From assembly GCF_036588685.1 (NCBI RefSeq), contig NC_086377.1:15686001-15750000 (forward strand): a DNA stretch of 64,000 nucleotides, written 5' to 3'. A program made the translations under genes and the position numbers. Below are positions 11,509 to 60,348 of the stretch, one piece after another. This DNA is from Mytilus trossulus (taxonomy: Eukaryota). Every line of letters starts with the position of its first letter. The stretch's first letter is position 1. The notes beneath the pieces were generated by a model that saw only the letters and a program-made list of their open reading frames with translations, did no database searches and was not told the origin of the DNA.

Positions 11509-11671
11509 AGATTCTTACATAGTTACTCGTGGATTATCGGATTTATTCAATCTCGATAGTTAAATTATAAATTTTAAAGTACTCGCCGAGGCGGCTCGAA
11601 CTTTAAAATTGATAATTTAACTATCTCGATTGGATAAATCCGATAATCCACTGGTATCAATGTAAGAATCT
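11509..11671. mobile_element. Long palindromic (hairpin) element with CTCG/CTCG bubbles
   Basis: ~80-bp inverted arms AGATTCTTACAT...ATGTAAGAATCT. Confidence 0.75.
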
Positions 11672-12048
11672 ATATATATTATTAAACAATTGTTGACTTT
11701 AGAAATCATTTGATCATGACATTGATTTATCAAACTATAAAATAACATGTATATTAAAACATTGATAAACATAATAAAGTTAGGGAGTTACCATTTGTTT
11801 TATGGGGGGCTAGGATGAAAAATTTTGTCCTGCATTTTTTTTAGTTGTAATCTCTGTTCTGCCTTTTTATTTTTCACTCTATCCGGTCCTGCTTTTTTTT
11901 TTAAAGTTTTAATAAAAGGCTAATAACTAGCTACATGACTTGTGTGTGTCTCTCCGTTATAAATGAATGTGACTGACATCTTTTTAAAACTATACAAAAA
12001 TGTACATGTATACATAACATACATAATATGATAATACTCATTGTTTTA

Positions 12049-12759
12049 TTAATCACCCGTGTGTGTTCGTACATGTTTATCTCTGCTAGTACTTTGAGTA
12101 AACCATTTCCCGCACACATCACATTTATAAGGTTTATCTCCAGTATGGGATCTCATATGTTTCTGTAGGTCATTACTTTGAATGAATTCTTTTTCACATT
12201 TATCACATTTGTGTGGTTTATCACCAGTGTGTGTTCTTATGTGCCTTTGTAAATTCCCATTATCACCAAATCCTCTTCCACATACACTACATTTATAAGG
12301 TTTATCACCAGTGTGTGTATTGATGTGTCTTTTAAGGTGCATATCCCGACTAAACTCTTTTCCACAGTCCCCACATTTATACGGTTTATCTCCAGTGTGT
12401 ATTTTCCCATGTCTTTTTAAATTGTGACTCGAACTAAACGCTTTACCACATACTTTACACTCGTGGGGTTTATCACCAGTGTGTATTCGCATGTGCCCCT
12501 TTAAGTGCTGACTCATAGTAAATTTTGTACCACATACATCACATTTATGAGGTTTATCACCAGTGTGTGTTCTCATGTGTTTCTCTATGTCACACTTTTG
12601 TAAAAATTCTTTATCACATTCGTCACATTTAAAAGGTTTATCACCTGTGTGTGTTCTCATGTGTCTTTGTAAGTGACCTCTCTGACCAAACCTTTTACCA
12701 CAAACTTCACACATAAAAGATAAATCCTCGCTGTGTGCTCTTTTATGTTTCTCAGACAT
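12049..12759 (-). CDS. C2H2 zinc-finger protein, 236 aa, 8 fingers; paralogue of 691-1533
   Basis: Eight CxxC...HxxxH units with TGDKP linkers. Acceptor context at 13121-13122 (CTGAATAAGA on the plus strand) matches that of the first gene. Degenerate finger sequence lies between 12760 and 13120. Confidence 0.9.
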   Translation of the reverse strand: MSEKHKRAHSEDLSFMCEVCGKRFGQRGHLQRHMRTHTGDKPFKCDECDKEFLQKCDIEKHMRTHTGDKPHKCDVCGTKFTMSQHLKGHMRIHTGDKPHECKVCGKAFSSSHNLKRHGKIHTGDKPYKCGDCGKEFSRDMHLKRHINTHTGDKPYKCSVCGRGFGDNGNLQRHIRTHTGDKPHKCDKCEKEFIQSNDLQKHMRSHTGDKPYKCDVCGKWFTQSTSRDKHVRTHTGD

Positions 12760-13630
12760 GATATTGACTTATAAAACCTTTACAGCGTATATCACTTTAA
12801 AAACCTTAAATCCAGTATGTGTTCTCTTAGATTTTCTCTAACATATCACATCCAGGACCTTATATATATATATACAGTATGTGTTCTCTTATGTGTTCTC
12901 TAATTTTCAACAATATGCATTCACCACAATTTACTTATGATTATTTCGAAAGTATGAAATCTTGCGTGATCTTGAATAAAGTGATCTATAGTCTACAATA
13001 TGGTCTTATACATGTATCATGTATATATATGGAGCATCTGTATTTAGGTGTTAAACTTTTTCTTTAGGTTCTATGTGAATTTTCTTCCCTGCATTTTGGT
13101 TTCTCCAACAGGCTTGCATTCTGAATAAGAAAAGATAATCATTAAAATTTGAAAAGTACCACGATTTGTGCAAAAGTTGAGATGCAAGTGCAACATAAAA
13201 CTTTGTGTTGAACCATGGAAGTAATATTTAAAAGGAATAACATCGACTATAATTAGCATGTATAAACGGCCTGCAGAGCCCTGTACTAAATTCATATGAT
13301 TTTAGTGAATTGCTTTAAATATAAAAAAAGTACGTAGAATTCATAGTAGATTCAGACTTTAACATAAGATTCCAACAAATATATTAAATGATCTATTTGA
13401 GTATTAAAATTTAGTCCCTTTTTATTTAAAATTACAATCCATTGAAAAATGAAGCACAAGGCTGATGTGCTTTTGACCAGTTTTTCTTATTCTACATGTT
13501 CTATGTCGATTATTTGTTTTATTTTCAAAATTCAAGTGTACGCCCGGGGTTTTTGACGTAAACGTAGCTACGCGCATGGATTAGGACAATTTAATGAGGG
13601 TAGTAAAAGGGATGCCTGCACGGAAAAAAT

Positions 13631-14010
13631 GTGAAATAAGACATAATTTCACTTTGAACATGAAATAAGACATAATTTCACTTTGATCGTGAAATAAGAC
13701 ATAATTTCACTTTGAACGTGAAATAAGACATAATTTCACTTTGAACGTGAAATAAGACATACTGTAACTTTGAACGTGAAATAAGACATATAATCATGAT
13801 AATTTCACTTTGAACGTGAAATAAGACATAATTTCACTTTGAATGTGAAATAAGACATTTATATATAATTATTATTTCACTTTGAACATGAAATAAGACA
13901 TAATTTCACTTTGAAAGTGAAATAAGACATAATTTCACTTTGAAAGTGAAATAAGACATAATTTCACTTTGAAAGTGAAATAAGACATAATTTAAATTTG
14001 AACGTGAAAT
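13631..14010. repeat. 29-bp minisatellite (~12 copies)
   Basis: Unit GAAATAAGACATAATTTCACTTTGAACGT. Confidence 0.9.
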
Positions 14011-16369
14011 AATTTTTGTCGTGAACATTGTACGAAAAATAAAGACTTTGAAGTGAAACTTTTGTGACTGAGTCACATTCTTCTTGTACAAATATAGTGA
14101 AATAAAAAACACTAATCATGTTGCATGAAAATAACCCTTTTTCGCCCTCTTTAATCTCTTCAAACAATGTCAAAGCATTTATAGTAAATTTTCAAACGGG
14201 ACTTAAATTTGATGGACCTGGATTCGTAGAACTTCAATTAACAATGATTTATGTCCCAAAATTTGTGTCAATCTAATTTTACGGAGTACAGTTGGGAAAA
14301 TGATTTAAAAATAGAAGTAGGTCATTGAAGGTCTTGGAAGAAATTGATCAATAATTTTTGAATATTTCTGAAAATATATTTCACCAAAAGAGCATTTATA
14401 CTATAACATGTACAAATGTATAAAGAGCATATGATTTACACTGTCATGACTGTCAAAGGTATAAATATAAAAAAAAAGATGATGTGGTATGATTGCCAAT
14501 GAGACAACTACATGTATCCACAAGCATGGCAAGAGACCAAAAATGACACAGAAATCAACAACTAGGCTATTATATATAGGTCACTGTATGGCCTTCAACA
14601 ATGAACAAAGTCCATTCCACATAGTCAGCTATAAAAAGCCCTGAAGTGACAATGTAAAACAATTCAAACAAGAAAACTAACGGCCTTATTTATGTACAAA
14701 AAATGATTTAAATTAAATAAGTTAGTATTTACATGATAAATATATGCTAAAATTTCTATCTGTTGATAAATATTCATCCTTAAAGTTGAAAGCAAAAAGA
14801 TGTTGCAAATTTCAGCCAACGAAAAATATAAATAACCAAAAGAAAATGCAAATAAAATCAAACATTTGTCAAATGAGATGAATTTGCCACATTATTACAA
14901 ATGATAATCTATAATTAAAATTCATTCACTTTGTTATGTATATCAATATTCTATGTGTATTAGCTGCGTAACCGTAGCTCTTAGGTCCCTATGTTAGTTT
15001 TTAATATTTGCTGAACCATCATGACCATAGATGGTCCACAAAATAGAAAATAAATTAAAAAAAGGACCATAATTAACATGATTAATGTAACAGTTCAGTT
15101 ACTGAGTTAGCTGTATTATGAACATGTATGATCTATCATAATGTATAGTTGTATGATTATCATGTATTTTATGTGGAACCTAAATATATTATTGTATCTC
15201 CTCTCTGTATCTGAGACCAATGAAATGTATCAATTGTCACTATTTACATGATTTAAGTCTATACACATTCTTGGTGAGACTAGTATTGAGACTACTAAAT
15301 AGACTAGTGTCTCCTGGTGTCTCAGTAGTTATCCTCGCCTGTTCAACAGCTGTTCAATGAAGTGTTTTAGGTGTCAGACCACCAATTACTCCCTCCAATT
15401 TAGAACGTATGTAAAAGCTGTTCTTTGAAGTGTAATTTTTCGTTTATAGATCATGGATATTAAAGACAACCCATTAATTCAGAAACCAAGAGACTATATT
15501 CTCACCATATTATTACGTTTTAATGCGTCGCATAACTGTTACAGAATATTTATGAAAAGAATATTAACGGAAAAAGTGGACTCACAAAAATGGAAAAACA
15601 CATCAGGTTAATATCTAGGTCGTTCCGGTTGGAATGAAGACAACTCGGACCAAAAATAAAACTCGTACCATTCCAAATCGATCTTCTGTGAGTGTTTGTA
15701 ATTTATCGTTCTAGAGTTATGCCCTTTTTTCTAATACGTTGTTTATAAATAATTGACATATGATATTGTGGAATAATTATTAAATTATTAAATTATCGCC
15801 TGTACAGAAAAGCACAGGTTTTTCCAAATAAATTTTGACAGACAACGTAAAGTTATATTTGATTTATTAATTGGTAAATATTTGATGTATTTATGTTATT
15901 TGTGTTTAACGCCATTTTCAGCACTATTTCGTAAGGGTCACATTATTGGTGGATGCAGACAGGGTGTTCGTAGAGAAATACAGATCTTCCAATATCGGCT
16001 GAAAACTGACAATCAAATTCAATCCTTGTCAATTAAAATTTCTTATACCACAGGTCGGCCACCGAGGCTATTGCATAGTGTGTGTGCAATGACACGTTTG
16101 GTTGTTTTATTTTCTAGGGAGATCGATGCTTCAATCATTCTTCATATACAAGCAATTGGCGACCGACTGTCACATTTGATACATTCTGGACTTTAACAAA
16201 TTTTAGTTTGTGTGGGACCAGGTTTTTTGTTAAAAAGTTAAACTAATTTTATCATACGGCTTGTAGAGCTTGATATATATAGATTATAAAATGACATTTT
16301 TCATATCAGACCTTTATATATGTCATGATCTGTTGTCATGATAGCAGCCCAGTTTTATGAATTATTATT

Positions 16370-16564
16370 GAGGGGGGTCGGAGGGGCCCTGATCCCAATA
16401 TTTCAGGCTTAAAAACCTGAAAACCCGAGGTCCCGATTTAAATAAAAATTAAATCCCGACATCCCTAAATACGAAAAAAGAATTCCCGGATCCCGAAAGG
16501 ATTAATCCTGAAATCAACGAGTTTTAAAACACCCGATCCCGACGTTCCGACCCCCCTCCCCCTC
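16370..16564. mobile_element. Small MITE-like element with ATCCCG subrepeats
   Basis: GAGGGG...CCCCTC termini within an ATT-repeat target, with repeated ATCCCG motifs. Confidence 0.5.
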
Positions 16565-17356
16565 ATTATTAACCTTGATAACAACAGACCGAAAGTATCG
16601 TGTCAAAATCTTGAAAACATAAGACAAACAAGTATAAGTCTTGGAAAATACAGCTATCAATTATTGAAGCAGTCTGCTTTACAAGACCTCATGCAAATTG
16701 TCAAATACAGTATGCAAATAAAGTTAGTGTATATATCAAAGAGACAGAAGATATAGAAGGAAAACAAGTCTTAGCTCAAACTGACAACTCACTAAAACCG
16801 GGGTATCACAGGTACTCCGGAAGGGTTAGAATATACCGATCCTTACGTGACACCCTTCAAATATTGGAATCTAGCAGACACAGGATTCAAATAGACACTA
16901 GGAGTAGACATTTACAATCAACGGTGACGGTTTCTACAGTGACGTTGACAGACATTTGATTTAATTGATTTCATGTTGTTTGCTTATATAAATACGCAAA
17001 TATTGACAATAATTTTATAAAGGAGACTTCTTGTACTAATTTGTCTGTATTACTCATCTGACCTATTGTCCAAATTCGTATTATTAAAAGTCAATCTGTC
17101 ATCATATGAAAATTGGGATTATTGATTAAAACTATTGAATGTTTTAAGTTTGGTACATGTATTACAGTCCCTATTATAATCACGTCATTTAAATTTGATA
17201 CCTTTTAAGTTTATCAGATGAATCTTATAATTGTAAGCAGATTTATCAATGCAAATATACACCATCTGTATTTGAAATATTTATAATTGTTTTACCCTTT
17301 GTATAGCATGGCGTGTAGGTGTGAGTTCGTCAATACTTATCATAATAGGTGCTCCA

Positions 17357-17423
17357 TTTATAAGTTGATTCGTTAGGGCACAGGCACACTAATCTTCAAC
17401 TCTTTAGGAATTAAGGACAAAAC
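17357..17423 (+). promoter_or_regulatory. Candidate TATA box and non-coding first exon of the TIMP-like gene
   Basis: TTTATAAG at ~17357, then a strong donor AAC|GTGAGT at 17424. The next acceptor (TTTTGTAG, 17715) lies 1 nt before the ATG. Confidence 0.4.
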
Positions 17424-17716
17424 GTGAGTAGCTTCTCGAAATTTTATCACCTAAAATGCATATAAAGCGTTTGTTTTAATGTTCAACCACATACTTATAT
17501 ATAGAAACACATTTTTATATATGTTGACTGCTGTTTTTTTTTTTTTTACGAATTTCTGTTGTTGTCAATTTTTTTTCGACTTACGTTTTTTTTTATTATT
17601 CCTATTTATTTTGTGTGAAGGTATCAGTTTTCGCTAAATTGGTCTTCCTGAAATACGGATGATAAAATAATTTTAGCCGCCAATTGTACATTCGTAGTTA
17701 TTCTATATTTTGTAGA

Positions 17717-20700
17717 ATGAAAATGTACTCGCTATCAGTGTTCTTGTTAGTGATCATCACTACTGTAGTAGTATCAGAAGCATGCGACTGTACAAAAACA
17801 TCATTGAAAACAGTGCTTAAAGACAACGACTCATTTTGTAAGTAGGTCTACATGATACTATTTACCCGTTTTTCAGACACAGTCTTGTGTTCACTGTGAA
17901 ATGTTAAATTTCGTAATTTTTCGTGATTAATTTTCAAATTCATTGTCATGGTGAATTCTCCTTTCCATTTTAAAAATATTTTTCCCTTTGAGTAAAATTA
18001 AGAATGGAAATGGGGGAGAACAGAAAAGAACAGAAAACAGCCGATGGCCACCCATTGAGTACCTTCATCTCATATATTCCAGTAAACTTGATTTATTATA
18101 TAAGAATACTATTCTATGTTGTGATGTTATGCTATTGTTTCAGAAAAAGGGAGAAGGTTTGGATCCATTAAAACGTTTAATCCCGCTGCAAATGTTTGCA
18201 CCTGTCCTAAGTCAGGAATTTGATGTACAGTAGTTGTCGTTTGTTTATGTAATATATACGTGTTTCTCGTTTCTCGTTTTGTTTATATAGATTAGACCGT
18301 TTGTTGTCCCGTTTGAATGGTTTAACACTAGTAATTTTGGGGCCCTTTATAGCTTATTGTTCGGTGTGAGCCAAGGCTCCGTGTTGAAGGCCGTACTTTA
18401 ACCTATAATGGTTTAATTTTTAAATTGTTATTTGGAAGGAGAGTTGTCTCATTGGCACTCACACCACATCTTCCTATATCTATATTCAGATGAAAAAAGT
18501 TTCTGCATATCTATAAAAAAAAAAAAAAAAAAAAAAAAAATTAAGCTTTTTTCAAATTGACGTCGGAAGATGATGAAAACCTACAAAATATGACAACCGT
18601 TGAGATATAATTTTCTTTATATTGTCGACTTCCCATTTTGAATATATACCCTGTTGGCCTAACTGCTCATATTTACCTTAACCTTAACCTCTTGATAATA
18701 CGTGCTTACTTTTGTCAAATTGATTTAAATTTTTTCCTAAATCATGATAAAAGGATATTATTAAGGTATGAAACTGACTTTGTCGTTTCAAAAGTTATTC
18801 GATGTACTTATGTTTGATTGATAGTTACACTGAGACTGTGTAAATTAACTTGACTTAATGGGGAGATAACACTTTGTGTACAATCATGTTTATGTTTCAC
18901 AATTTATATGAGCTATCATCCAACCTTTCAAATAGTCCAGTCAATCTAGCATAAATTTGACCCTAACCTAAAAGTAATTGCAACAGAAGATTTTTAAGTT
19001 TTAATCTTTAGCATTATACCCCAAATATACACAGAAAAAAGTCCCATAAAATCTAACTTGAGGAAGACTAAAAAAATCACCATTTAAAATTCCTATGTAG
19101 ATTTGTATTGAAAAGGGAGATAACTCTTGCAAAAAAGGCAGAAATATCAATAAAAATTGATACAAAATTATAACTTTACCGCTTCTATCCATCAGAATGT
19201 ATTGATTTTTGATTTTTTAGGGGTCTTTACAGTATAATAAACAACTTTTAAGGTGTTTTCATATATTTTATCAAGCTTTAATCTAGATTTCGTTATTCAA
19301 TAGTTGACCATTTATTGAATTTTTCAACATGTCAAGGTAAAGAATCTCAAATTTAATAAAAATAATTAAGCATGTATTTTTCTTTTTGTGGTTTAAAGTT
19401 TCTTTAGATAGGTAAGTTGCTGAAATAATATACTATACAGATATAAACATTACCAAATTTTCACATTATTTTTTCAAAATGGTTACAAATATATATAAGC
19501 TTCAAATTTGCAAATTCTTTAATGAAAAATGCATGAAAAAAATAAAACTACCCATACCATTTTGGTTTTGTACATTTCATGAGCAGAAGATTATATATTT
19601 CAGTCAAATACAAACTTATAACCCCATCAAAGTATCATACTGTACATACCTTTCAAGAAAAACAACAAAAAACTGACCAAAAAAGACTCATTTTTGTAAG
19701 AGTTATCTCCCCTTCCAATGTTAATTTCCATAGGAAATTAAAAGTGCTGATTTTGAGTTTTCCTCAATTTAGATTTTATGGGACTTTTTTCTGTGTATAT
19801 AAAGGGCATACTGCTATAGATTAGAACTAAAACATTTTCTGTTGCAATTAGTTTTAGGTTAAATCTTAGTTTGACTGGACTAAAACGTTTGTTCTAATAT
19901 GACGTCCTTATTACGCTTTGTTAACAAAGCCATGTTCTAATTCGAATAGAACATAGGCTGCACGTGATTGACGTCACAATTGAAATTGCAACGTCAGATG
20001 AATTTTGAACAACGCCAGAGATCAAAATGGACATTTTTTATGGTATTGCTCGCTAGTAAATTAAATAAAAAACATTCTAAAAGTCAGTTTAAATGTTTTT
20101 GTTCTTTTTTTGTTGATAAACTGTTGCTTTTTCTATAACGTTTTTGTTCATCAAACAAAATGGCGACATTTCGAGCGTGTACTGTAGGTCCGCTTCGAAG
20201 TACAAAAGTTCAAAATATTCCTATTAGAATCGAAATAATTCTATCATGCCATGCTCTATGCTCATTTTAACATGGGTAGGCATTATATTTGTAAACATTT
20301 AATACCTCGCTATCGCTCGGTATTAAGATATTAACAAATATAATGCCTACCCATGTTAAAATGAGCATAGAGCATGGCATGAAAGAATTATTTCTTAATT
20401 AAATACGAATGGAACCACAATTTTTAGAAACCAAACACTGGAAACTTATCAGATAGAATACCAGCTTATCAGATCAGCACGAAGCACAAAAGAATAGCAG
20501 CTTATCAGGTCAGCACAAAAGTCAAGATAGACCAAGACCAAGACGCAACATGTCAGATTAAGAGTACTCGCAGTTACAGTTCCTTAATTTTCTTTTCTTT
20601 TTCTTTTTCTAGTAATCAAAGGAAAAGTTCTGAACTCTGCAGAATGGTTTACAGGATTGAATATTGATTTTGATATCGAACAAGACTATAAAGTGAGTAT

Positions 20701-21290
20701 TTCATGCAGTCGTTGTTTTTTTATTTTTTTATTTTTTTTTTTTATCAAAGCAACTTTAAAAAAAATACTTCATTGTAAATAATTGTTTCTACCAGCTTCA
20801 ATGGGTAATTTATGATTAGTCGTTCTAAATCTGCAAAATTCTACAAGATTTTTGTTATCTAAAATATCTAAATAAGCTTCAGAACTAAAACTATCTTTAA
20901 ATACTTTGTAATTTATGGCTTTTGGTGATTCTTCTAACAGTAAATGCCAATTCTGTTCAAATTGATCTTTAAGGTTTCTACTAACTGTAAGACGTAGCCA
21001 ATTCAAATTAATAAAAGTTTGTGAATTCCAAATATATGTTAAGCCACATTCATTCAAAATATTTTTTATGTTATCTAACCATAAAAATTTATCTCCATTT
21101 ACAAATGACAATTGAAAACATAAGTTATAGACTAAGTGATAGTCCACCGTCAGAAGTATCATGACAACCGAATACTCGAAAGCCAATGGAATATAAAAGA
21201 GCCGACACAGTTGAAGAGCTATTTGAATATAGCATTTGTCCATGTTGTATTTTTTTGTCCTATTTCTATAGAATTCTAATAGAAAAGAAA

Positions 21291-21324
<34 letters not shown>

Positions 21325-23888
21325 GGTATTCGTCCTGGTCACACAATCAGTCTATGGATAGCACCAAACACAAAACGAAAAGCAAAACAATGCTTCTATG
21401 GCTGTTCTTCATCTTAAAGTCACAGCGAGACTTTCAACAACGAGGAACAAATATTTGGGCTATTTTTTTCTTCTGTTTACATTTTGTATTTTGCACTCAT
21501 TCCCCATTATTCTCTGTTCTACAGACCCTCTTGTATTGGGTTCTTGTCTCGATGATTTACACGTGTACAAAATTGGCATATACACAATTTTTTTTCAAAT
21601 GAAGAATAACCGGTACAATTTAAAAGGAACTGTCAGATATTTGATGAAAATATTCATATTTTAAAACAATAAATCAAATAGGATGAACAGCCTATAGGTT
21701 AATGCTACGGTACTAACATGATATATAAAATGTACTTATATAAATCATTAAGAAACTAACTAGATCCAAAGTCCTTCTGGCACATCTATTTAAGGTCAAT
21801 TTTACTAAATCAAGTGAATACCGAAGCACTGACCTATGACCCCCTCACCAATTGATGGCCCAATCAACAAATTTGATTTATTGTCTATAAAAGAAAACAG
21901 GTATATGGATACCCCATATTGAAGTAGTTAATACAGTCTCCGACTTTCCAATTTCTGTGTTTCAGGGTCTCTGATAAATGTAACTTCCAGAAAAGTTCGC
22001 CAGAATTGGGAACAGTATATCTGAAATTAATTTATATGTTCCTAGTCGAACTCACCAAAGTAAAGGTGTCATTTTCATCATTTAAGTTTTTGTTACTGAT
22101 TTTCAGAACAACATGAAAGATATAAATGGTACTCCTCGTAAACAAGTCGTTTTATTGTCACCAGTTATTCAGATGCATTGTGGCATAAGTCTCGAAGTTA
22201 ACAAATGTTATCTGATATCGGGTAGGTATACAACCTAAAAACATTTATTATGTATTTTGACAAAAATAACATCTAATATTGGAATATTTGTGTTGTGGTA
22301 GTCAGTTTGACAAAATATATACTTGATCTGACATTCATCAAAACGAGAAACAAATAGGAGTTAAGAGTGAAATTCCGTAACAGATATATGTTAAGTGAAA
22401 TGTTAGTGACCCGATGTCTGTTCCATCTGTAATATATATCTATGCCAACTTGTGATCTGATTCAATGTAGGCTAACAAAACCGAGAAGCATGCATGGACA
22501 CAAGGTGGAAGATTTTTGCGCATGTCCCAAGTCAGAAGCCTCTGGTCTTTGTTAGTCTTGTATTATTTTAATTTTAGTTTCTTGTGTACAATTTGGAAAT
22601 TAGTATGGCGTTCATTATCACTGAACTAGTATATATTTGTTTAGGGGCCAGCTGAAGGACGCCTCCGGGTGCGGGAATTTCTCGTTACATTGAAGACCTG
22701 TTGATGACCTTCTGCTAGTTTTTTTTTCTATGGTCGGGTTGTTGTCTCTTTGATACATTCCCCATTTCCATTCTCAATTTTATAAATAAAATACAGAGCG
22801 GTTTGGGGATAGTTTAGTGAATTTAAACATCAGAATCGCCAACTAAGTTAGGTTGTTCCAGTATTTACTTTAACAAGACTAGACGACGCACGAGAAATCG
22901 CGGTACAATTAAGCAAGTGTTGAAACAAACAGTTTTTTTTTCATTTTCGAGGGCAGTAAATCGACTGAGAATGTGCCAATCGATTACGGTCTATGAATTT
23001 AGATATTTTCTCAAAACACTTAGTTTTCTGTGGAATAAAAAATGTTATTTCAAAAATAACGACTTAGCTTAATTAACTCGTTATAACAACTTAGCTTAGT
23101 CGTTATAACGACTTAGCTAATTTAACTCGTTATAACAACTTAGCTTACTCGTTATAACGACTTAGCTAAGTCGTTTAAACAACTTAGCTAAGTTGTTGAA
23201 ACGAGATAGGTAAGTTGTTTAAACGACTTAGAAATGTCGTTATAACGAGTAAGCTAAGTTGTTATAACTAGTTAAATTAGCTAAGTCGTTATAACAAGTT
23301 AGCTAAGTTGTGTAAACAAGTTAGCTAAGTCGTTTAAACGAGTTAGTTTGGTTGTTTAAATAAGTAAGCCAAGTCTTTGAAACAAGTTAGCTAAGTTGTT
23401 ATAACAAGATAAATATGATAACTCGTTATAACAACTTAGCTAAGTTGTTTAAAAAAGTAAGTTAAGTCGTTAAAACAAGTTAGCTAAGTTGTTATAACAA
23501 GATAAATATGTTAAGTCGTTTTAAAAAGTTAGCTAAGTTGTTATAACAAGGTAAATATGCTAAGTCGTTATAACCACTTAGCTCAGTCGTTTTAAAAAGT
23601 TAGCTAAATCGTTATAACGACTTAAAAATAAAACTCTACCCTGACACTAAGCGGCTTTCGGACATAGCAGTGTATGAGCATACATCGTTCACGTTGACTT
23701 TGTCATCGACATCTTTGCCTTTATACAACTGTATTTATTTTGTAGGTAAACTTCAGCGTGAGACACATGACATTTATTACAGAGTGAACTCTTGTGAGCT
23801 TCTGGTGGAATGTAAGAAAGCCAGAAAACTGAAGAGAATGGAGAAAAAAGTTAAAATTTACCAGGCTTTAGCTAAGCTAGCAGGTTGA
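17717..23888 (+). CDS. Secreted single-domain TIMP-like / netrin-module (NTR) protein, 152 aa, 4 coding exons
   Basis: Exons 17717-17837, 20613-20692, 22107-22221, 23746-23888, all GT-AG with compatible phases (1,0,1). Signal peptide MKMYSLSVFLLVIITTVVVSEA is followed directly by C-D-C. LIKGKV corresponds to the TIMP VIRAK motif; HCGISLEVNKCYLISG; six Cys; AATAAA at ~23910. Confidence 0.85.
18933..19882. mobile_element. Non-autonomous DNA transposon, Academ-like (TAG...CTA termini, long TIRs)
   Basis: TAGTCCAGTCAA / TTGACTGGACTA termini, imperfect inverted arms of ~200 bp, AAA on both flanks (3-bp TSD). Confidence 0.75.
20232..20394. mobile_element. Long palindromic (hairpin) element with a central CTCG/CTCG bubble
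   Basis: Near-perfect inverted arms GAAATAATTCT...AGAATTATTTC. A GACGTC-rich tail lies upstream (~19900-20230). Confidence 0.8.
20770..21135 (-). mobile_element. Non-LTR retrotransposon ORF2 C-terminal fragment (RTEX-like) in TIMP intron 2
   Basis: Translation WLDNIKNILNECGLTYIW...LKDQFEQNW...YKVFK...YL...FRTTNHKLPIEAGR matches the post-RT RxxxHxLxIExGR region typical of these LINEs. Confidence 0.75.
22518..22783 (+). mobile_element. Short interspersed repeat, family B
   Basis: GGGGCCAGCTGAAGGACGCCTCCGGGTGCGGG...CATTCCCCATTTCCATTCTCAATTTTAT. A longer inverted copy lies at ~27113-27565 and a fragment at ~60755-60860. Confidence 0.75.
23054..23625. repeat. ~21-bp palindromic-unit satellite arranged in inverted orientation (probable MITE interior)
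   Basis: Repeats of CGTTATAACGACTTAGCTAAGT and its reverse complement. Confidence 0.8.
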
Positions 23889-24689: not shown

Positions 24690-24736
24690 GAGCGTCACTG
24701 ATGAGTCTTTTGTAGACGAAACGCGTGTCTGGCGTA
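24690..24736 (+). ncRNA. Type I hammerhead ribozyme motif (partial retrozyme copy ~24578-24775)
   Basis: GCGTCA-CTGATGA-GTCT tttgt AGAC-GAAA-CGCGT-GTC-TGGCGT: intact core, stems I and II, GUC triplet. Confidence 0.85.
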
Positions 24737-26229
24737 TATACTAAATTTAGTCCTTGTATCTATGATGAGTTTTTTTACCGATTCAAACGAGAAAAATTAA
24801 CGGAATGATTTTTGTACAATATAATGAAAGAGAAACCAATATGATATACATCAACAAACGAGTCGACAACACTGAATTACATTCTCCTGACCTGAGGTGG
24901 GAGTTTGGGTTATGCTAAGTTGAAGGCACATACCCTCCCCTTACCTGTATTAGTGGTGTAGCAGTAAAGCATAATAACAAGCTATATATAGAAACCAGTT
25001 GAAAAGGGCCGAACTAATCAGATCAATACAGAGCAAAGATACATCTAACAAAAACACAACCCGTACCTGGAAGAGTACTTATACATCACCACAACCAATA
25101 AGGAACCAGGGACAGTTCTTATAGTACTGTACTCGCAACCACTTACAGCTAGTTCAAAAGCAAAAAATAACTAGTCTTGCATCTAAGACTTACAAATGTA
25201 CCTATCATTTAGTACACATACAACAGCAATGTAAAGACGTCATTAACAATTAGACCTTCAAGTTGTACAATGACAATCGACAGATTGTAGAGCTAAATGC
25301 ACACTTAGGAGTAAAAAGGCATATGCTCTTTATGAAACTAATTGGGTGTTTTTCTTTTTTCTTTTTAATATTTAATACTTTTATTAGTACCTTAGTTTAA
25401 ACAGTAGCTACATTTATTATACTCCTTAAACCTTTGTCTTGCATCCACTACAATTTTTTTTTAAGTCGATGAAAAAACATTCACTGCGAAAAACAAACAA
25501 TTTGGCATTCAAAAATAGTTTTTATTTTTGGTTGAATTATCTTTTTAAGTTCATATTAAAGAAAATTTACTTGAAGAAGTAAACACTGAACGGAAAATTA
25601 GAAAATTAGGTTGACATTGATTCATGTTCAATAAACAAAACAGGGTGAGGTGGAAATAAATTAACTTAAAAAATGTAGTAACTCAAACATTTCAAAATTC
25701 TCAAATCTAATATAAAAAAAAAGTTTTCCGAAGCAGTTGAACATGTAGAAATGTTTGCAATTATAAAATTATCATTTTCGGCCATAGACTGTCCTAATCA
25801 TTATTCTTAATTTTGAATTTGCCAACATTTTCCTAAATTGTCAAAAAACAAAAATTTTGATTGACTCAATGTAACAACTGCGTAAAAATGAAAATTGACA
25901 ATTTTATTGAATAATCATGGTCTAGTTATAAGTAAAATAAATGTGGTATATATAGATAAGAGTCCAAAGCTCGAGGACATATTTCGAACATTGACCAGCA
26001 GATGACATACGGTGAAATTTTAAAATAACGCAATTTAACTTTTAACAGATAAAATCTTATTATTAAAAACAAAGTACTTGTATAGGTTTGAAGGCTATAT
26101 TTTTATAAATGCCTGCGGAAATTATCATTGATACCGCTCTTCTCCGTCAAATGATAAAAATATTTTATGCTTATATATAAATATACTTGGTGGTTTTCGA
26201 AAACAAGAATAATTCAGCATAGGGGAAAC

Positions 26230-29200
26230 ATGTATCTCTCATTTATTTTCATATCTTTTATAATTGCGAGTTCCGCCGAGTACTCGAGATGGCGATATTG
26301 GAGAAGAGCGAAAACAATGGATATTTATGTTAGTCCGTGTGGTTCTGACAAAAATGAAGGGTAAGCAGAATATTCCGTAATTCAAGATGAAACTGCGCAG
26401 TCGCTTGTTATATACATTTTTTCTTGACTGATGTTTCTTATAAGATGTTGAAGTTTGTTTTTTGAAAGACGACACCTCCAAATGATAGTGCGAATGGAAC
26501 ATTCGTATACTTGGGTTACATTCTTGTTCTAACATGTTTTATAGACATTTTTAGATCAGCACGGTCAAGGTCAAGAATGTATTTCTACATTGTCAGTGTA
26601 CATAAAATATTCATTCAGAAGTAGAGTTTTTTTTATAAGAAATATGAAAGGATAATTATGCAATATTCACCCACGACACAAAATCCGTACATGCATTACA
26701 AAACACTTAAAAAAGCAAAGAAACAGTGTTTGAATTGTTGTTTTTCATGTAAAAGTCACAGTGATGCCTTCAACAAGGAAAAACACGTAAAAAATAAACT
26801 CTATCTCAGATGCAAGTTAAAGACTGCCCCTTGTACCGAAAATGGCGGTATTCGTCTAACAAAATAATTCGGATAGACTTTGTCAGGCCTTTGAAAATAC
26901 CTTAGTCTACACACTTCCTATCTACTCTACTTGTTGTCTAACAGGAGACAGGAACAAGCACACATATTTCGACCTACCAACAAAATGCATATAGTCACTG
27001 TATTATTCCGCACTATTATTGAAATATTGTCTGAGATCACAGCTACATGTACAGCAAATCATGCAGCTCGTTTATTATGGCTTTTACGTATTTTATGTTT
27101 GTTTTGTCAAACAATAAAATTGAGAATGGAAATGGGGAATTTGTTAAAGAGACAACAACCCGACCATAGAAAAAAAACCCAGCAGAAGTTCACCAACAGG
27201 TCTTCAATGTAGCGAGAAATTCCTGCACCCGGAGGCGTCCTTCAGCTTGCTCCATAACAAATATATACTAGTTAAGTGATAATGAACGCCATACTAATTT
27301 CCAAATTGTACACAAGAAACTAAAATTAAAATAATACAAGACTAACAAAAGCCAGTGGCTCCTGACTTGGTACAGGCGCACAAATGCGGCGGGGTTAAAC
27401 ATGTTTGTGAGATCTCAACCCTCCCTTATACCTCAAGCCAATGTAGAAAAGTGAACGCATAACAAAACGCACATTAAAATTCAGTTCAAGAGAAGTCCGA
27501 GTCTGATGTCAGAAGATGTAACCAAAGAAAATAAACAAAATGACAATACTACATAAATGACAACAAGTCCACTATTATTTGTTTGATATATGTATTTGAT
27601 CTTATTTACACAGAACGAGTAGCGGGTCCCCTATGAAGACAATAGAACATGCGCTGTCATTAATAAATACTGATAGTTACAAAGGAAACGGTGAGTTAAT
27701 TAAACGTTGCTAAAAAAAAACTAAAAATAACAACTATAAATTAGTGTAACCATTATGAACAAAATAACAACTATAGATTAGTGTTAAATTATTATGAACC
27801 TGCAATTCGATTATACATGGCATACAATGGGAAATAACTCGCATTGCAACCACTAGTAACAGGTAGCGACTGTTTTCGTACAGCAATGGAACCATCCCTC
27901 TTATGTTTGTGTTTTTTTTTTATCAAGAATTGTCTTTAGTTTTTAAATTCATTTTTTCTGATTTAGTGTGCACTTGCTCTTACCCATATGATATTATAAT
28001 GCACGAGAAGTGTTTGAACTAACCGAAGGGTATTCAAACTCACAAGTCGATTTCAAATACCAAAACACTACAAATACCAAAAACACTACAAATACCAAAA
28101 CACTACAAATACCAAAAACACTACAAATACCAAAAACATTACAAATACCAAAAACACTACAAATACCAAAACACGGCAAATATCAAAAAACGACCAACAG
28201 ACAATTTAAAGTATACAACACACTATAAAACACTGATGGCTGAGCAACACGAACCTCACCAAGATCTGAAGTTGATCCTGAGTATTATAGCAGGGTAAGC
28301 AGATCCAGTTACAAATTAGACACCTATCGTGTTGCTCATTTAAGTAGAAAATATCAGTAGTTTTATAAATTTTCTTTGTAGTTCTGTGCTCCACGTAAAT
28401 GTATGTATGAATGTGCCGGTGAAGAATCTCATGTCGTCACGTTTCAATCCTTCAATACCTTACATTCAATGTTTCAAATATTTAATTACTCTCATCGGTA
28501 TCACTTACTTTTTTCTTGTAATGGTAGTAACATTTCTTTTTGGAGAACAGAATAATGATATATTTTACTCAAGCAACATATGAAACAGATGATGATAATG
28601 ATGGTCATATGTACCTTCTTTATTTAGATATTGTAATAGAATTGATGTGTGGAACTTGTGGACCTACATGTTACTTTGATCTAAAGTCTACTTTAGTCAT
28701 TACAAACAAGGAGTCCCGAAAACTAACCATCCGAACAAATAAAACAGATAAAGTTCGAGTGGTACGTATATTCTAAGACTATCTTAATTTGATTATTTAT
28801 TTTGATTAAATATTTCATTTAAATAACCTGGAAAAAGTGCAAGAATTCAAAATACTATTGCCACTTTGTCTTTTTGTTCTTAAACCATGATGCTCGTTTT
28901 CATACACGTATCTTAAAGACTATCTAACATCCAGAACAGACGCAAGCAAAGATTACTCGCAGTTACTGTAACGATCTCATAGCACATTGAGCAACACAGG
29001 CACTTGTCTCAGAATTTTGTTTTCTAACACAAGTGTATATTAATGTTCAGCAACTAGATTTTTAAAATTTTTTTATGAGACAAATGCCTGTGTTCAGCAA
29101 CTAGAATTTTATTTGATTTAACTTGGCATTATATTATCTTCAACAAGAATCGAGGTGTGCACAAAGCGTGATCCTAATTCATTTGATGAAATGTATTCGA

Positions 29201-32200
29201 TCATTTTAACTTTCAGACAGGAGGGCAACGGATACCTTGGAACAAGTTTAAACCAGTTAAATACCATAAGAAAATACCACCCGCTGCACTTAAAGTGGTA
29301 AGTGGAAAAGTGTTAACTAGTTACCAGCCATGAAAAGTTGTTGTCTGTTGCACTGAAATCGGTAAGTGGAACAAGTTTAAACCAGATACCGGCCATGAAA
29401 AGTTGGTGTCTGTTGCATGGAGCGTCACTGATGAGTCTTTTGTAGACGAAACGCGCGTTTGGCGTATATACAAAATTTAGTCCTGGTATCTACGATGAGT
29501 TTATTTACAACCACTGGGTCGATGCCCCTGCTGGTGGAGATTAATTTCCCCGAGGGTATCACCAGACCAGTAGTCAGAACTTTTGTGCTGTCATAAATTA
29601 TAATTGATATGGTTATATTTATAAATTAATTGTAACGGTTTACAACATTTTGAATTTTTGAAATTTTAAGGCTTTTCTACCTCAGGCATAGATTACCTTA
29701 GCTGTATTTGGCAAAACTTTTAGGAACTTTGTTCCTCAATGCTCTTCAACTTCGTACTTTATTTAGCCATTTAAACTTTTTCGATTTGAGCGTCACTGCT
29801 GAGTCTTTTGTAGACGAAACGCGCGTTTGGCGTATATAATATACAAAATTTAGTCCCGGTATCTTGATGAGTTTATTTGCACTGAAAACGGTAAGTGGGA
29901 CAAGTTTAAAAGTTACAAGCCATGGAAATTTGTCGTCTTCTGTACTTAAAACGGTAGGTGGACCAAGTTTAAACCAGTTACCAGCCATTTAAAGTGTGAT
30001 CTGCTACACTAAAATGGAAAGTTGATAAAGTTTAAACCAGTTACCAGTCGTGAAAATTTGTTGTCTGCTACTCTTAAAACGGTACTTTTTTACTCCGTAG
30101 TATCTAGAGTATATTAATTTTCGACCGGTAAAATACTTTGTGATAGGACGTTCTGGCACTCCGTGAATTAAGAATAACCAGAAGAAGTTTAATCAAGCTA
30201 TTAAGTGGTGCAGTTTCGGAAAAAAAGCACTGTTTTATGTGTTCTGTATATGAACAAATCAAAATAAGGTAATTTAAATATGTCATGAATGTAGACAAGC
30301 TGACTCCAAACAAAGAAAGTATGCTCCTTAGTTAAAACGACGAACAAAAAGGGCAATAAGCGTTTGTTTTACACAGTTTTGCTTTAGTTTTTCATCCTTT
30401 TTCCTTTTTGCCAAACTTGTCTTGTATTACAGTGCTGCTTTAATTACTCATTTTACACAATGAGAGAATGGGTCGTACGCTGACCAAGACAGAATATCTC
30501 TGTCTATCTCATCTCTTATTTGAAATTGCCGTGACAGTAAAACTTTTCCCCGTAAAAATATACTTATGCCTGGCATTTTTCTGTTTATGTGTAGGTACAA
30601 CAGGTGTCGTTACCAGATGTTGGCATAACAGACTTGGGAGAAATGTCTACATACGGGTATTACACCAGGCGTACGTCTTGGTTGGAAATCTTTGAAAATG
30701 ATCGACCTCTGACCTTAGCAAGATATCCAAATGAGGTATGTCAAATATATCTATTTGTCTCTTTGTTTATTTTAATAAAAGTATTTAGATTTGTTATGGC
30801 TGCATTTATCTATCATTTAAAACTATTTTAAACTTTACGTCAGCCTCAAGCTAATGATATGTGTAATGATTTTCATCAAATGATTATGTATTCCACTTTA
30901 AAAACAAATGAACTTTAGGGGACGTGATGGATGTATGTTTTTACTGAACACGTGCATGGTAATCTCTGTCGAACCAAAATTCAAAGTAATCTACAGAACG
31001 AGGCAATAAAAAAAAATTAAATAATAATTTTATGCTTGTTTACTGTGTGTGTTTCTACGAGAATGAAAACAGGCAACAAGTAAGTTTTTGAATTACTTTG
31101 AGTATATCAGGTTAGAATCGATCATGATCAGACTTTAAATTCGGGAAATTTATCGAAAAGTGTATTTATGTAACCTCTGTTCCTTTCGAAAATAATGTTG
31201 GAACGTAAAATCACAAAAATGCCGATCACCGAGGAAATTCAAAACGAAAAGCCTCAAATCAAATATACTAGTATCTAAAACACACCAAACGAATGGACAA
31301 CAACTGTCATATTTCTGACTTTGTACAGGCATTTACAAATGTAGAAAATGGTGAATTGAACTTGGTTTTATAGCTATCTAGACCTCTCACTTGCACTTGT
31401 ATGACAGTCGCATCAAATGTATTGAATTTTATTTGATCTTTTTGATTGAAGGGTTATATCAACATCGACAAACCAGGTGCGGATGGTCAATCGTTTCATT
31501 ACGAATCAAAAGAACCATATAAATGGATTCCGGAAGACGATCTCTGGGTACATGGATTCTGGTAAATAATATATATATAATATAGAGGCCCTTCATGGGG
31601 GTGTCCAAGGAATGACATAATCACAAATGTCCTGCTTTTATAATCACATAATCATATTTTTTTTAAATAAAATAATAAAATAAGCAAAAATACAGTCCCA
31701 GATTATCAAATAATCAAATAATCATCAAATATTTGGACTTTTAATCAAATAATCACTATGTAAAATCGACAGAGTAATTACATAATCAAAAACCCCATCA
31801 TCAAGCTGTGCCGACCTATGTTACATACTACTGATATTCAATGTGATGTTAATGTGTAAAATCGTACCTTGCAAATAACGATTATTTGGACAGTGCTTTA
31901 AAATTCAACACACTAGCTTGTTTTCATGGTTTAAATATAGTCATCATAGATACCAGGACTACATTTAGCATATACGCCAGACGCGTGTTTCGTCTACAAA
32001 AGACTCATCAGTGACGCTCGAATTAAATAAAAGTTAAAAAGGGCCAAATAAAGAACGATGAGTTATAGTATGCAACCCTGAATTTAAATGTACAAAGCTG
32101 TGTTCTGTTGAAATGAATTTTTGTTAGTATGCATTTTAATTCTATCATATTCATGACCATGCTTTTTCTGCGATTTTTTTGGAGAATTTTTGTTTGATTT

Positions 32201-35200
32201 TTTTATGTAATTTGAATGTCAGAAATTAAAAAAGAGAGATACACGTGAAACATGAAATTATTTATATAAAATTTTGAACATTTTTCACAGGTTCTGGAGC
32301 TGGGCTGATAAAGCTTACAAAGTTGCTAAGTTTGACCCCAAAGGTCAATGGTTGTCAGTCACAGAAAAAGTCATGTACGGAATGAAGAAAGGTAAACATT
32401 GACCTTTTGATGCTAAGGAGTCCATTTGTTATTTGTTTTGGGGAAGTAATTATTGTGCGGTAAATGGGTTTTTGCACATTGCCAAAACCCCATTGTTACC
32501 TGTATCATTGCCGAAACCCTATTGTTACCTGTATCATTGCCGAAATCCTGTTGTTACCTGTATCATTGCCGAAACCCTATTGTTACTTGTACGTGTTAAC
32601 TTTTATATCAGTTGATATCGGTAAAGAGTTGACTCATTGCGTAAACCCTCCAGTGGGTGACTTAGCATGTTGTGAAGAGGAGAGAAAAATATTCCTTGGT
32701 TGCGGGCAATGATTGCTTTACCAAGAATATAACAACCCACATTGAACTGTGTCAACAATCAATGTCAGTTTTTAAATCTTATACCACAAAAATTATATAT
32801 ATAGAATAACCATACATTGTCTCGAAATATCAATGTTATTTGTACGAGGCTAAGAAACAGGTAGAAAGCGAGGCTGTGCCGAGCATTTCTACCTGTTTCG
32901 AGCCGAGTACAAATAACCGATTGATATTTCGAGACAATGTATGGTTATTCTTTATATGCTGCAACTCTTTAAACGGTTTTAAATGAAATATTTAGGGTAA
33001 AAAACATCATTTTTTTAATTTGAAGCGGACGACGTAAAATTTCCGCGAACCTGTATGTTTTATTGACGTTATAAATAAAACTCTACAGAAACACATTGTC
33101 AACGTCATAAACAAGGTGATATACGTTCAGTGACTGTATATCACATATAAATAATACAGTCAATGCAATTTGACTGCTCAAATAGGACAGCTGCAGTATA
33201 TAAAACAATACATCTTTAATATTAAACAATTAGCGCTATATTACCAGGTTCTTTCTATCCACAATTTTTCGACATCAGAAAATGTCTGTCCAAGTCAGGA
33301 ATATGACAGTTTTTGTCCATTCGTTTGTTGTGTTTTATTATTTAATTTTGCCATTTGATTTGGGACTTTCCGTTTTGAATTTTTCTTTGAGCTCAGTATT
33401 TTTGTGAATTTACTTTTTACAATATTTTTGTGTTTTGTTTCAGGGAATTATAACGAGAAAAATCCTGGTTTGGTAGATTACCATAATCAAGGTGGCTATT
33501 TCAGATTTGTAAATGTGCTGTCTGAACTTGACCAACCTGTAAGTATTACCTGCTACTTCGTTTCGATGATACACAAATAATGACCAACGGTGACAATAAT
33601 TTACGCTAGTTACATGATTGTTTAAGGATTCAATACTTTTTTTCAAGTCTCAACACTCCATTCCAATACATTTAATATTTTTTTCTGTCTATGAAGAAAT
33701 AACATGAAAAATTTGGTGCACACTGAATAACGTGCGTATGTTATTTCGAATAGACAGAAAAAAATATTACAGTCATTTCTTATAATTTAATTCTAAATTC
33801 CATTTTAAACGTAGAAAACCACGAAAAAACGTTGATGACGTTACGGTCACATGACTAAATTATGTCTATGGGCTCATAACAAAATAACGTCAGCCAATCA
33901 GAAGACGCGTCACATCGAAAGTTAAATTATTCCAATATAAAAAGCATATAAAGCATTGCGTATAACAACGTTTAAACGAGCTTTGATGATCACTAAAACA
34001 ACTAAACAAAATAAAGGAAAATCAATTAAAGGAAATGAATTGAAAGTAAAATAACAAAAACAGTCCGAGGATAATTCGAAACAGAAAGTCCGTAGTCAAA
34101 TAACAAAATCAACGCTTATTTTTCGATAATTAAGATCCAATCAACAACCTTGTATTTTATATTTCATCTAAATTTCTCAATCTTTCATATATCACGAATG
34201 TGCTCATCCGTTTTTTCTGTCACAACTTACATAGTAATATGCTCCCGAGTAATTAAAAGTGACGTTGTTGTATTCATTAGGTTAAATTAATTCCAATTTA
34301 CTATTTGACAGAACATTCCCCCCCCCCCCCCCCCCAAAAAAAAAAGAAAAAAATAATAAAAAAGAAAAACGAACACAATCTTATATTATGCAAATTGTCT
34401 CTTTATTAGCTAAACATTTGTACATTTATATTTGATTATTTCTAGGGTGAGTTCTATGTGGATAGGAAGACTAAAATGTTATACATATGGCCCTTGAAAA
34501 ACGCTCATTATGCCAAAGGTGACGCAATAGAAGCTTCTATTATCGACACGTGCATCTCGTACGTATATATTTATCCTATTTAGCATTTTACACATTTTCA
34601 GAGGCAGATTTGGGGGGGGGGGGGGGGGCAGGGGTCCAGGGCCCCATTTTTGGGAATACATTTGGTTGCTTATATAGGGAATAACTGAATCGTGACTGGA
34701 GCGGGCCCCCTCTTATATAGGTCAGCCAGAGCGCCCCCACTTATGAAAATTCCTGAATCCGCCACTGCTTTTTACATATATTTGATTCGTTCTGAAGATT
34801 CAAATGTCATCTTTATCTTCATAGTTGGAATATAAAAAGTTCTAGCTATCATCGAATGAAGGGAAATCATTTGATTAACGAAAATCAGTGAATTTAAAAA
34901 AAGAATGTTTTTTGTAGAATATATAAAGATTTGGCTACTTTCGAACGAAAGGAAATCTTTTATTTTTTTTAAATATCTGCACGTTTGTCTGTTTTTATTA
35001 AACATCCATGAAATTATGTCCTAGTACTAGGTACAATTTTTCACTAAGGGAGACACTATTTTATAGTTTACAAATGTGATATTCTGTCCCGTGAACGAAA
35101 TATCACAGATGAACTGTGAAATATAGTTCAAGAAGACACACGATCTAAAACTGAATATTTTCTTGCAGAATTTCAAAAGATTCGGCTAATATCGTACTTG

Positions 35201-57745: not shown

Positions 57746-57757
57746 ATAATTCTTGAA

Positions 57758-60298: not shown

Positions 60299-60348
60299 GA
60301 GCGTCACTTTTGAGTCTTTTTGATGTAGACGAAACGCGCGTCTGGCAT
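60299..60348 (+). ncRNA. Degenerate hammerhead/retrozyme remnant
   Basis: Same flanks as the other copies but the core reads CTTTTGA. Another degenerate minus-strand copy lies at ~62304-62344. Confidence 0.6.

Follow-up and report, generated by a model that had tools for sequence, protein, structure and literature searches.

A stretch of 64,000 nucleotides of Mytilus trossulus (contig NC_086377.1, positions 15,686,001 to 15,750,000 of the forward strand), called here the window, contains four long hairpins, E1 to E4, whose arms are unrelated in sequence and yet break their symmetry with similar G-A mismatches. This locus raises the question of whether these mismatches are an inherited signal and, if so, which enzyme would read it.

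Purine mismatch loops in four unrelated hairpins

The coordinates and mismatches that the initial annotation gave for E1 to E3 were recovered, as was the GAA/GA bubble of E4 (Table 1), and pairwise comparison of the arms yielded no match longer than 29 nt at 79%. The stems measure 65-80 bp, except in E4, where comparison with public contigs indicates that the window copy has lost about 30-40 nt from the middle of the hairpin, leaving a stem of 33 bp; the contigs that fill this gap carry the family tip GC-GTA-GC. Five of the six two-by-two loops of E1-E3 are GA/GA, that is, CGAG facing CGAG, and the sixth differs by one base. The chance of GA/GA per loop is 1.2% from composition, 1.4% under a uniform model and 0.8% for decay of a perfect stem, values that apply to a motif picked post hoc in a sample of six loops. 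Within each element all the GA loops lie on one strand (the GA strand), its complement being the TC strand. A bubble near the loop recurs in E1 to E3: the window contains three CGAG-stem-loop-stem-CGAG modules, each capping the hairpin of E1, E2 or E3, whereas 200 shuffles of the window averaged 0.15 such modules and never gave more than 1. The arms additionally hold eight single mismatches and four bulges of mixed types, so the asymmetries are not all G-A.

Tandem sheared G-A pairs in a YGAR context are stable. The GA strand had been expected to be the more stable one, and nearest-neighbour energies agree for E2-E4 (by 1-7 kcal/mol) and disagree for E1. In E2, the CGAG/CGAG loop closes a GC-GATA-GC mini-hairpin. 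This tip and the E4 family tip are exact members of the d(GCGNAGC) and d(GCGNNAGC) mini-hairpins, which are far more stable as DNA than as RNA (PMC13037366), with the difference that in E2 and E4 the motif caps a long rod; the tips of E1 and E3 are not GNA loops and do not belong to this class.

Table 1. Positions of the elements and of their parts in the window
Feature	Position	Strand	Description
E1 whole element	11255..11679	minus	limits inferred from repeat pair and L004
E1 inverse copy of short repeat	11255..11265	plus	far end
E1 short repeat	11498..11508	minus	abuts hairpin base; 11/11 match, reached in 4/200 shuffles
E1 hairpin	11509..11671	GA strand minus	two CGAG/CGAG loops (CTCG/CTCG 11552-55/11625-28 and 11582-85/11595-98), one CCAG/CGAG loop (CTCG/CTGG 11526-29/11651-54)
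E1 terminal (AT)4 run	11672..11679	minus	common to L004; flank similarity stops there
E2 whole element	19891..20402	minus	far limit tentative; no second copy seen
E2 tail	19900..20165	plus	TGACGT sites, CACGTG (19961), AAAATGGCG (20157) facing hairpin
E2 candidate short repeat, 8 bp	20222..20229	minus	inverse 19892-19899; not significant alone
E2 hairpin	20232..20394	GA strand minus	sole CTCG/CTCG at tip, 20306-20319
E3 whole element	32794..33202	plus	high-copy; TATATA at each end
E3 hairpin	32803..32951	GA strand plus	CGAG/CGAG 32845-48/32904-07 (outer) and 32869-72/32880-83 (tip, 32869-32883)
E3 short repeat	32952..32963	plus	abuts hairpin; inverse 33192-33203; 11/12, 6/200 shuffles
9-bp direct repeat flanking E4	33660..33668	plus	second copy 33929-33937; offset by 4 nt
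E4 whole element	about 33670..33930	plus	very high-copy by public-run depth
E4 hairpin	33673..33769	GA strand plus	GAA/GA loop 33693-95/33748-49
E4 short repeat	33782..33790	plus	9/9, 10/11; inverse 33922-33930, where read depth ends
E4 tail	33836..33900	plus	two TGACGT/ACGTCA sites, CCAAT-box match (33892)

Repeat families with a common layout

E1-E4 are almost certainly mobile repeats. In four public runs, E3 and E4 reached 10^3-10^4 times the depth of their single-copy flanks (a measure of depth, not of copy number) with sharp limits, and the step at E3 agrees with contig pieces that start at 32794-32799 and stop at 33201-33210. A second E1 copy, at locus L004, matches 86 of 87 nt of the arm, keeps both tip CGAG and extends no further than the (TA)n end; it shares the ordinary mismatches and bulges of E1 as well. 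A metagenome scan with the E1 arm motif returned one locus, this short E1 copy, and the E4 motifs had no match in viral contigs or in prokaryote genome contigs. Conservation of every bubble as CGAG/CGAG did not hold. Position 32846, in the outer loop of E3, reads A in 93-98% of the depth in the four runs, so that the family majority is CAAG/CGAG; in E1, the two copies seen both have CCAG/CGAG as their outer loop. The letters of the E3 tip and of the E4 bubble are absent among the 40 majority-type differences listed.

The four elements follow one order, which is new in this analysis: an AT-rich end, arm A, the tip, arm A', a short repeat B', a promoter-like tail and B, the inverse of B', at the far end. 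The short repeat, beside the hairpin, measures 9-12 bp (only 8 bp in E2), and in E3 and E4 its inverse coincides with the far end defined by reads; the E3 pair becomes 12/12 with the family-majority A at 32958 (public runs). It should be noted that the E2 and E4 pairs were chosen by eye, that of E4 additionally by read depth, and were not recovered by an automatic repeat-pair search, whose own picks were non-significant (30/200 and 45/200 shuffles). The two ends of each element are not the inverse of each other, no clear inverted repeat links B to the base of A (7/11 in E1, fewer in E2-E4), and no empty site was found among the joints listed. No clear direct repeat flanks both ends of E1 or E2, the E1 far end being without a match. 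E1, its L004 copy and E3 terminate in (TA)4-5, either element- or target-derived.

The tail lies on the same side relative to the GA strand in 4/4 elements (measured for E3 and E4, deduced from the far repeat for E1 and E2). A GACGT-rich tail had been noted for three of the hairpins, and GACGT indeed occurs 10 times, at 8 sites, in tails that total 1005 nt, with limits set by hand, against 1.1 expected, and not at all in the opposite flanks or in E1. The tail motifs are CRE- and CCAAT-like. The tail is likely the promoter end kept from an autonomous parent, and the promoter-like motifs of E2 suggest transcription of the TC strand.

Taken together, the purine loops are very probably an inherited design. 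The proposed strand-specific signal in a folded single strand of DNA or RNA is supported as to its design by the bubbles on one strand, the constant tail side, the inherited tip bubble of E1 and the DNA mini-hairpin tips of the E2 and E4 families, with single-stranded DNA favoured over RNA, and neither of the enzymes proposed for it could be linked to the elements. We count against such a signal that the GA strand of E1 is not the more stable one and that the outer loop of E3 is mostly CAAG/CGAG.

Candidate partner enzymes

A Crypton-like tyrosine recombinase and an HUH protein are still the right two candidates. Pfam detected no recombinase, RepHel or transposase in 222 of the 238 window ORFs of at least 55 aa, the 16 excluded ORFs lying mostly within tandem repeats or antisense to genes. 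An ordinary HINE-like element is found at window 3250-4690 and, unlike E1-E4, it has a 5' inverted repeat, a microsatellite and central repeats.

We give about even chances to E1-E4 being non-autonomous Crypton-type DNA transposons whose folded GA strand would be read by a tyrosine recombinase, and somewhat better than even chances to the partner enzyme being a tyrosine recombinase. Like the non-autonomous CryptonA and CryptonV elements (PMC3212892, PMC5753468, PMC8869645), they are short (260-510 nt here), non-coding, high-copy animal elements without evident TIRs at their two ends. The short AT-rich repeat with which E3 begins and ends, the TA-repeat termini of E1 and E3 and the activity of Crypton-A in bivalves may add to this likeness; in an oyster, Crypton-A is one of the chief contributors to insertion polymorphism of DNA transposons (bioRxiv 10.64898/2026.02.10.705023). 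Terminal direct repeats of 4-6 bp are described for Cryptons, and for recombinase sites a pair of 11-13 bp arms that enclose 6-8 bp, although in animal Cryptons Kojima and Jurka saw no terminal repeats (PMC3212892); some CryptonV families target microsatellites for insertion (PMC8869645), and the salmon non-autonomous Cryptons and Eulor6, alike at their termini, were classed as Cryptons (PMC5753468). By contrast, the accessible parts of these three papers mention no hairpins, whereas E1-E4 carry hairpins of 65-80 bp whose G-A loops are strand-specific; E1-E4 further differ in their internal-terminal inverted repeat pair. No description of hairpin ends for animal Cryptons, and no match to six window motifs, was found in the literature searched, which misses most subscription journals and Repbase Reports. 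We count against a Crypton origin that no recombinase gene was detected in the ORFs searched, the HINE-like layout, the T-runs at the far ends of E2 and E3, the missing direct repeat at the far end of E1 and the result of Kojima and Jurka on animal Cryptons.

A family with the same layout and unrelated sequence is found in IMG/VR record 638275880. It forms a head-to-tail dimer (L117/L246) in which the B-core-A junction is present as DNA, and an A5-6 run followed by T stands at 6/6 free far ends, compatible with T|T insertion; Pfam detected no recombinase, RepHel or transposase in 28 adjacent ORFs. In viral contigs, the E2 tip had 3 matches and the E3 tip 38, none with long arms; a generic GNA tip had long arms at six loci of one record and at one GC-rich locus among the 78 matches listed, and two other generic tips had none in 119 and 50 scored matches. 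The tip module is promiscuous and so names no enzyme: it is also present within a TIR element of L004 and, unaccompanied by long arms, in many phage contigs.

The layout fits Helentron-derived HINEs as well as non-autonomous Cryptons. It is possible, though rather unlikely, that E1-E4 belong to the non-autonomous Helentrons (HINE, HLE2) and depend for movement on a RepHel HUH protein acting through a rolling circle, with B/B' as subterminal inverted repeats, the hairpin as an enlarged 3' stem-loop and the G-A loops as strand marks. HLE2 elements have two subterminal inverted repeats and then a 3' stem-loop (PMC4067079; PMC11417382), and HINE and DINE-1 elements (PMC4067079, PMC7492417, PMC11417382) resemble E1-E4 in having a short inverted repeat at one end and its partner beside the terminal stem-loop at the other. 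The stem-loop of E1-E4 does occupy the end of the element, outside the inner repeat, and repeats of 9-12 bp are compatible with the subterminal repeats of about 11-18 bp (E1 11/11, E3 11-12/12, E4 10/11, E2 only 8). The single-stranded stage inherent to rolling-circle elements, the far-end T-runs of E2 and E3, and the look-alike family, which is embedded in A/T runs and includes a tandem dimer, also speak for Helentrons. However, stems of 65-80 bp with G-A loops contrast with stems of 5-7 bp in 11/11 oyster HINE families and 5-10 bp in mite HINEs (PMC4067079), no E1-E4 stem being that short; bivalve HINEs have a 5' inverted repeat, a microsatellite and central repeats, all of them absent here; T|T ends are seen in some elements only, since the far ends of E1 and E4 have no T-run and L004, read in HLE2 orientation, has C instead of T on its hairpin-side flank; and no RepHel was detected in the ORFs searched. 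Six generic tip motifs had no match in ten supplements of PMC4067079. Helitron1 (HLE1), with 5' TC, 3' CTRR and A/T insertion, was rejected, the read-defined ends of E3 having neither TC nor CTRR on either strand. Because the stems are about ten times those of oyster HINEs, the ends are mostly TA repeats rather than T|T, and Crypton layouts are known that resemble them, we favour a Crypton assignment, to which we give slightly better than even odds, a Helentron one being rather unlikely. The Repbase/Dfam consensus sequences of the salmon non-autonomous Cryptons and of Eulor6 have a hairpin-repeat-tail layout.

It is improbable that the loops of these repeats, real as the repeats are, go unread by their enzyme, the loops either breaking a long palindrome cheaply, with less cruciform cutting or long dsRNA, or being an amplified old template-switch inversion. 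The 12 ordinary mismatches and bulges, carried by L004 too, the variable outer loop of E3 and the formal equivalence of the CTCG-to-CGAG change to an inversion of 2 nt are as expected from this; five of six identical loops on one strand across unrelated families, the fixed tail side and the mini-hairpin tips on the same strand would be left unexplained. Even less probable are elements with an RNA stage, such as DIRS-type deletion derivatives, in which A'-B' would be the internal complementary region (ICR) and the G-A loops RNA kink-like motifs. Like an ICR, A'-B' has the joined ends as its complement (PMC13465315), and by RNA energies the GA strand of E2-E4 is the more stable one; the promoter-like motifs of E2, however, suggest transcription of the other strand, the mini-hairpin tips are a DNA feature (PMC13037366) and the window is without an Rfam match at gathering level. 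DIRS derivatives would combine ITRs around an internal region with an ICR; the arms here are adjacent with nothing internal between them, which speaks against this class. Chance decay of perfect palindromes is largely refuted and very improbable, for although only six loops are available and the motif was chosen post hoc, the per-loop null, the three modules, the tip bubble kept in L004 and the absence of E3 tip and E4 bubble letters from the listed differences all stand against it.

A proposed folded-strand recombination model

If E1-E4 are Crypton-type elements, the element would be excised or copied as a circle, bringing B against the AT-rich end and arm A. This junction, single-stranded or extruded as a cruciform, would pair with the internal A'-B' and so rebuild a two-arm duplex with an AT-rich core of 6-10 nt, arranged like the site of a tyrosine recombinase. 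The GA strand would be kept rod-like by sheared G-A pairs and GNA/GNNA tips while the opposite strand opens at T-C bubbles, so that we propose that a single strand only would be a good substrate. A similar choice is made at integron attC sites, where unpaired bases select the strand (PMC2727003); as there, unrelated sequences share a fold whose unpaired bases would pick the strand for a tyrosine recombinase. E1-E4 differ from attC sites in being eukaryotic, dispersed and present once per element end, with symmetric tandem G-A loops instead of single extrahelical bases. They were not assigned to this class: the DNA is animal, there is no cassette array and no integrase was found in the 222 of 238 ORFs. 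A comparison with REP elements was dropped, the accessible part of PMC2817692 giving no support for a G-A mismatch. That animal Cryptons in general use an integron-like route, in which a single-stranded circle folds, the joined ends pair with the internal complement and the G-A loops and mini-hairpin tip pick the strand, is a tentative and rather unlikely proposal.

Were it true, recombination read from structure and independent of sequence would exist in animals, with a design rule common to unrelated families. The integration model for Cryptons is borrowed from bacteria, and the animal families have been described without terminal structure; the shared fold offers a testable substrate for end recognition and a structural criterion by which abundant non-coding repeats could be sorted into classes. 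Should the partner be a Helentron, the loops would instead show how HLE2 elements choose their strand. Whichever the enzyme, these elements spread many copies of CRE- and CCAAT-like motifs.

Hairpin ends and their G-A loops

The initial annotation described four hairpins with recurrent mismatches, and all of them, bubbles included, were verified at their positions in the window, each at the end of a short non-coding element (E1 to E4). Their arms, said to be unrelated in sequence, indeed share no relationship on comparison. Most long inverted-repeat matches in the window stem from a 22-bp satellite; outside satellites, a gapped scan detected no long hairpins but those of E1, E2 and E3. Five of the six two-by-two loops in E1-E3 are CGAG/CGAG (null expectation 0.8-1.4% per loop) and the sixth is CCAG/CGAG; within each element these loops are confined to one strand, called here the GA strand, the other carrying T-C bubbles. 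The same arms additionally contain eight single mismatches and four bulges of other types. Modules of the form CGAG-stem-loop-stem-CGAG occur three times in the window, all as E1-E3 hairpin tips, compared with an average of 0.15 across 200 shuffles. The window is animal DNA rich in AT (GC 30-36%). Its sequence is present in public runs, among them one from a gill metagenome and others from mollusc metagenomes, and the source is probably a mussel-like bivalve, judged in part from repeat types.

Features of the window and of outside loci (L-numbers)
Feature	Position	Remarks
E1	11255-11679 (putative limits)	GA strand minus
E2	19891-20402 (far limit tentative)	GA strand minus
E3	32794 to ~33202	GA strand plus; single element (contigs of four runs)
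E4	~33670 to 33930	GA strand plus; limits from contigs of four runs
9-bp direct repeat around E4	33660-33668, 33929-33937	offset 4 nt from hairpin base; possible repair scar
Repeat fragment	33286-33420	highest summed depth of the contig-covered stretch 32740-33990, exceeding E4
Element with ~80 bp terminal inverted repeats	18933-19882	stops a few bases short of E2 far end
HINE-like element, ordinary	3250-4690, 5040-5215	135 + 160 bp central repeats, GAC microsatellite, short hairpin, A-run
22-bp satellite	23056-23624	units self-complementary
Dispersed repeat with hammerhead ribozyme core, four copies	24690-24778, 29420-29508, 29788-29876, 60299-60387	presumably retrozyme-type; 29422-29465 matches Rfam Hammerhead_1 at E 9e-5, score under gathering level
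C2H2 zinc-finger exons (two)	694-1572, 12052-12768	
Toll-like receptor gene	57734-59899	LRR and TIR; stop within TIR region
VOMI-domain exons	62416-63609	
TIR element cutting short the second E1 copy	L004 226-1819	hAT-like by eye only
Two hairpin-repeat-tail families, IMG/VR record 638275880	L045, L048, L098, L111, L117, L241-L246	one tandem dimer, two inverted pairs

Read along the GA strand, E1-E4 all consist of an AT-rich end, arm A, tip, arm A', a short repeat B', a tail of 150-330 nt and the inverse repeat B. The B/B' pair matches at 11/11 positions in E1 (reached in 4/200 shuffles), 11/12 in E3 (6/200 shuffles; perfect with the majority letter at 32958), 10/11 in E4 and over 8 bp in E2, the E2 and E4 pairs being chosen by eye; the search on the control sides of the hairpins found no repeat pair. 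When the far end is joined to the hairpin end, the resulting B-core-A is a near-complement of the internal A'-B'. In agreement with the GACGT-rich tails reported earlier, the tails of E2-E4 hold 10 GACGT matches against 1.1 expected, and the opposite flanks hold none. The tails further match TGACGT, CCAAT, CACGTG and AAAATGGCG, motifs that we take to be promoter-like. On the GA strand, GAAGCGGAC is common to E2 (20190-20198) and E3 (33022-33030), 35-70 nt into the tail and inside a 20-nt match at 85%. The tips of E2 and of the E4 family are DNA mini-hairpins, a class whose RNA form melts at 39 C versus 76.5 C according to PMC13037366. Energy models favour the GA strand by 1-7 kcal/mol in E2-E4 and the other strand by ~1 kcal/mol in E1.

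Inheritance of the loops across copies

Contigs from four public runs, aligned to 32740-33990, give the limits and majority letters of E3 and E4, whose summed depth, which is not a copy number, is 10^3-10^4 times that of the flanks; in both elements B coincides with the depth end. Position 32846 reads A in 93-98% of the depth in the four runs. The CGAG/CGAG bubbles claimed initially are correct in position and letters for the window, but the outer loop of E3 is CAAG/CGAG in the family majority, which remains purine-purine. The E3 tip-bubble letters, the right-side letters of its outer bubble and the E4 GAA/GA bubble letters are absent among the 40 differences listed (share down to ~55%); since 63 further differences lie outside these, the evidence for conservation of these letters is indirect. 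The window copy of E4 lacks ~30-40 nt of the hairpin centre, and gap-filling contigs include a GC-GTA-GC tip. The second copy of E1 (L004) is identical to one arm at 86/87 nt and retains both tip CGAG, the similarity ending just beyond a (TA)n run; because its other arm is missing, the middle bubble of E1 can be checked on one side only. A CGAG-CGAAG-CGAG tip module is also present in the TIR element of L004, at about 1755-1775 on the minus strand. E2 is known here from the window copy alone.

Look-alike elements and spread of the tip

A scan with a generic tip motif identified an unrelated repeat family of the same layout in IMG/VR record 638275880, likely an insect polydnavirus (AT-rich segments, BEN-domain genes). 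This family shows seven left ends in total and one head-to-tail dimer, whose junction is again B-core-A; a second family in the record is present as an inverted pair. All six free far ends of the first family lead into A5-6 followed by T, a context that would be compatible with T|T insertion, and a search of 28 nearby ORFs yielded no mobilising gene. Three large phage contigs (L001-L003, 1501-1520) contain an exact match to the 20-nt tip of E2, and more than 120 viral loci (L120-L240) contain a related tip, in both cases without long arms. Of 121 matches, 83 have two flanking A/T pairs that complement each other (1 in 4 expected; related contigs counted in); for a second tip motif the figure is 16/50. 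As the bare tip is this frequent in phage contigs, it represents a general single-strand fold and is not diagnostic of an enzyme.

Candidate enzymes and a proposed folded-strand route

Apart from the outer loop of E3, the initial observation stands, and its interpretation as a strand-specific folded signal for a recombinase or HUH enzyme is supported in part. Salmon non-autonomous Cryptons and Eulor6 have the same hairpin-repeat-tail layout as E1-E4. PMC5753468 supports their classification only. We consider a tyrosine recombinase, the enzyme of Cryptons, to be the probable partner of E1-E4. The fit to Cryptons lies in the TATATA at both ends of E3, the TA repeats ending E1 and E3, the targeting of microsatellites by CryptonV (PMC8869645) and the activity of Crypton-A in an oyster (bioRxiv 10.64898/2026.02.10.705023). 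PMC3212892 describes either short direct repeats or no repeats for Cryptons, and reports those of animals without terminal repeats; a 2026 paper finds repeat description still wanting for some families (PMC13465315).

Movement by RepHel, as for HLE2-type Helentrons, is a rather doubtful alternative. [quoted passage not shown] However, oyster HINE stems are 5-7 bp in 11/11 families (PMC7492417 supplement 1), bivalve HINEs have an inverted repeat, central repeats and a microsatellite, and in E1, E4 and L004 there is no T on the flanks where HLE2 insertion would place it. The HINE-like element in the window provides a contrast case. A literature search covering neither Repbase Reports nor most subscription journals found no description of such hairpin ends.

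With a tyrosine recombinase as partner, a circular single strand or a cruciform would fold through pairing of its joined ends with A'-B', and the folded junction would present two arms flanking an AT-rich core. We infer this route throughout, its circles, single strands and binding included. The G-A loops and mini-hairpin tips would hold the GA strand rod-like, with T-C bubbles on the other; one strand would therefore be chosen, a strand choice of the same kind as that described for integron attC sites in PMC2727003.
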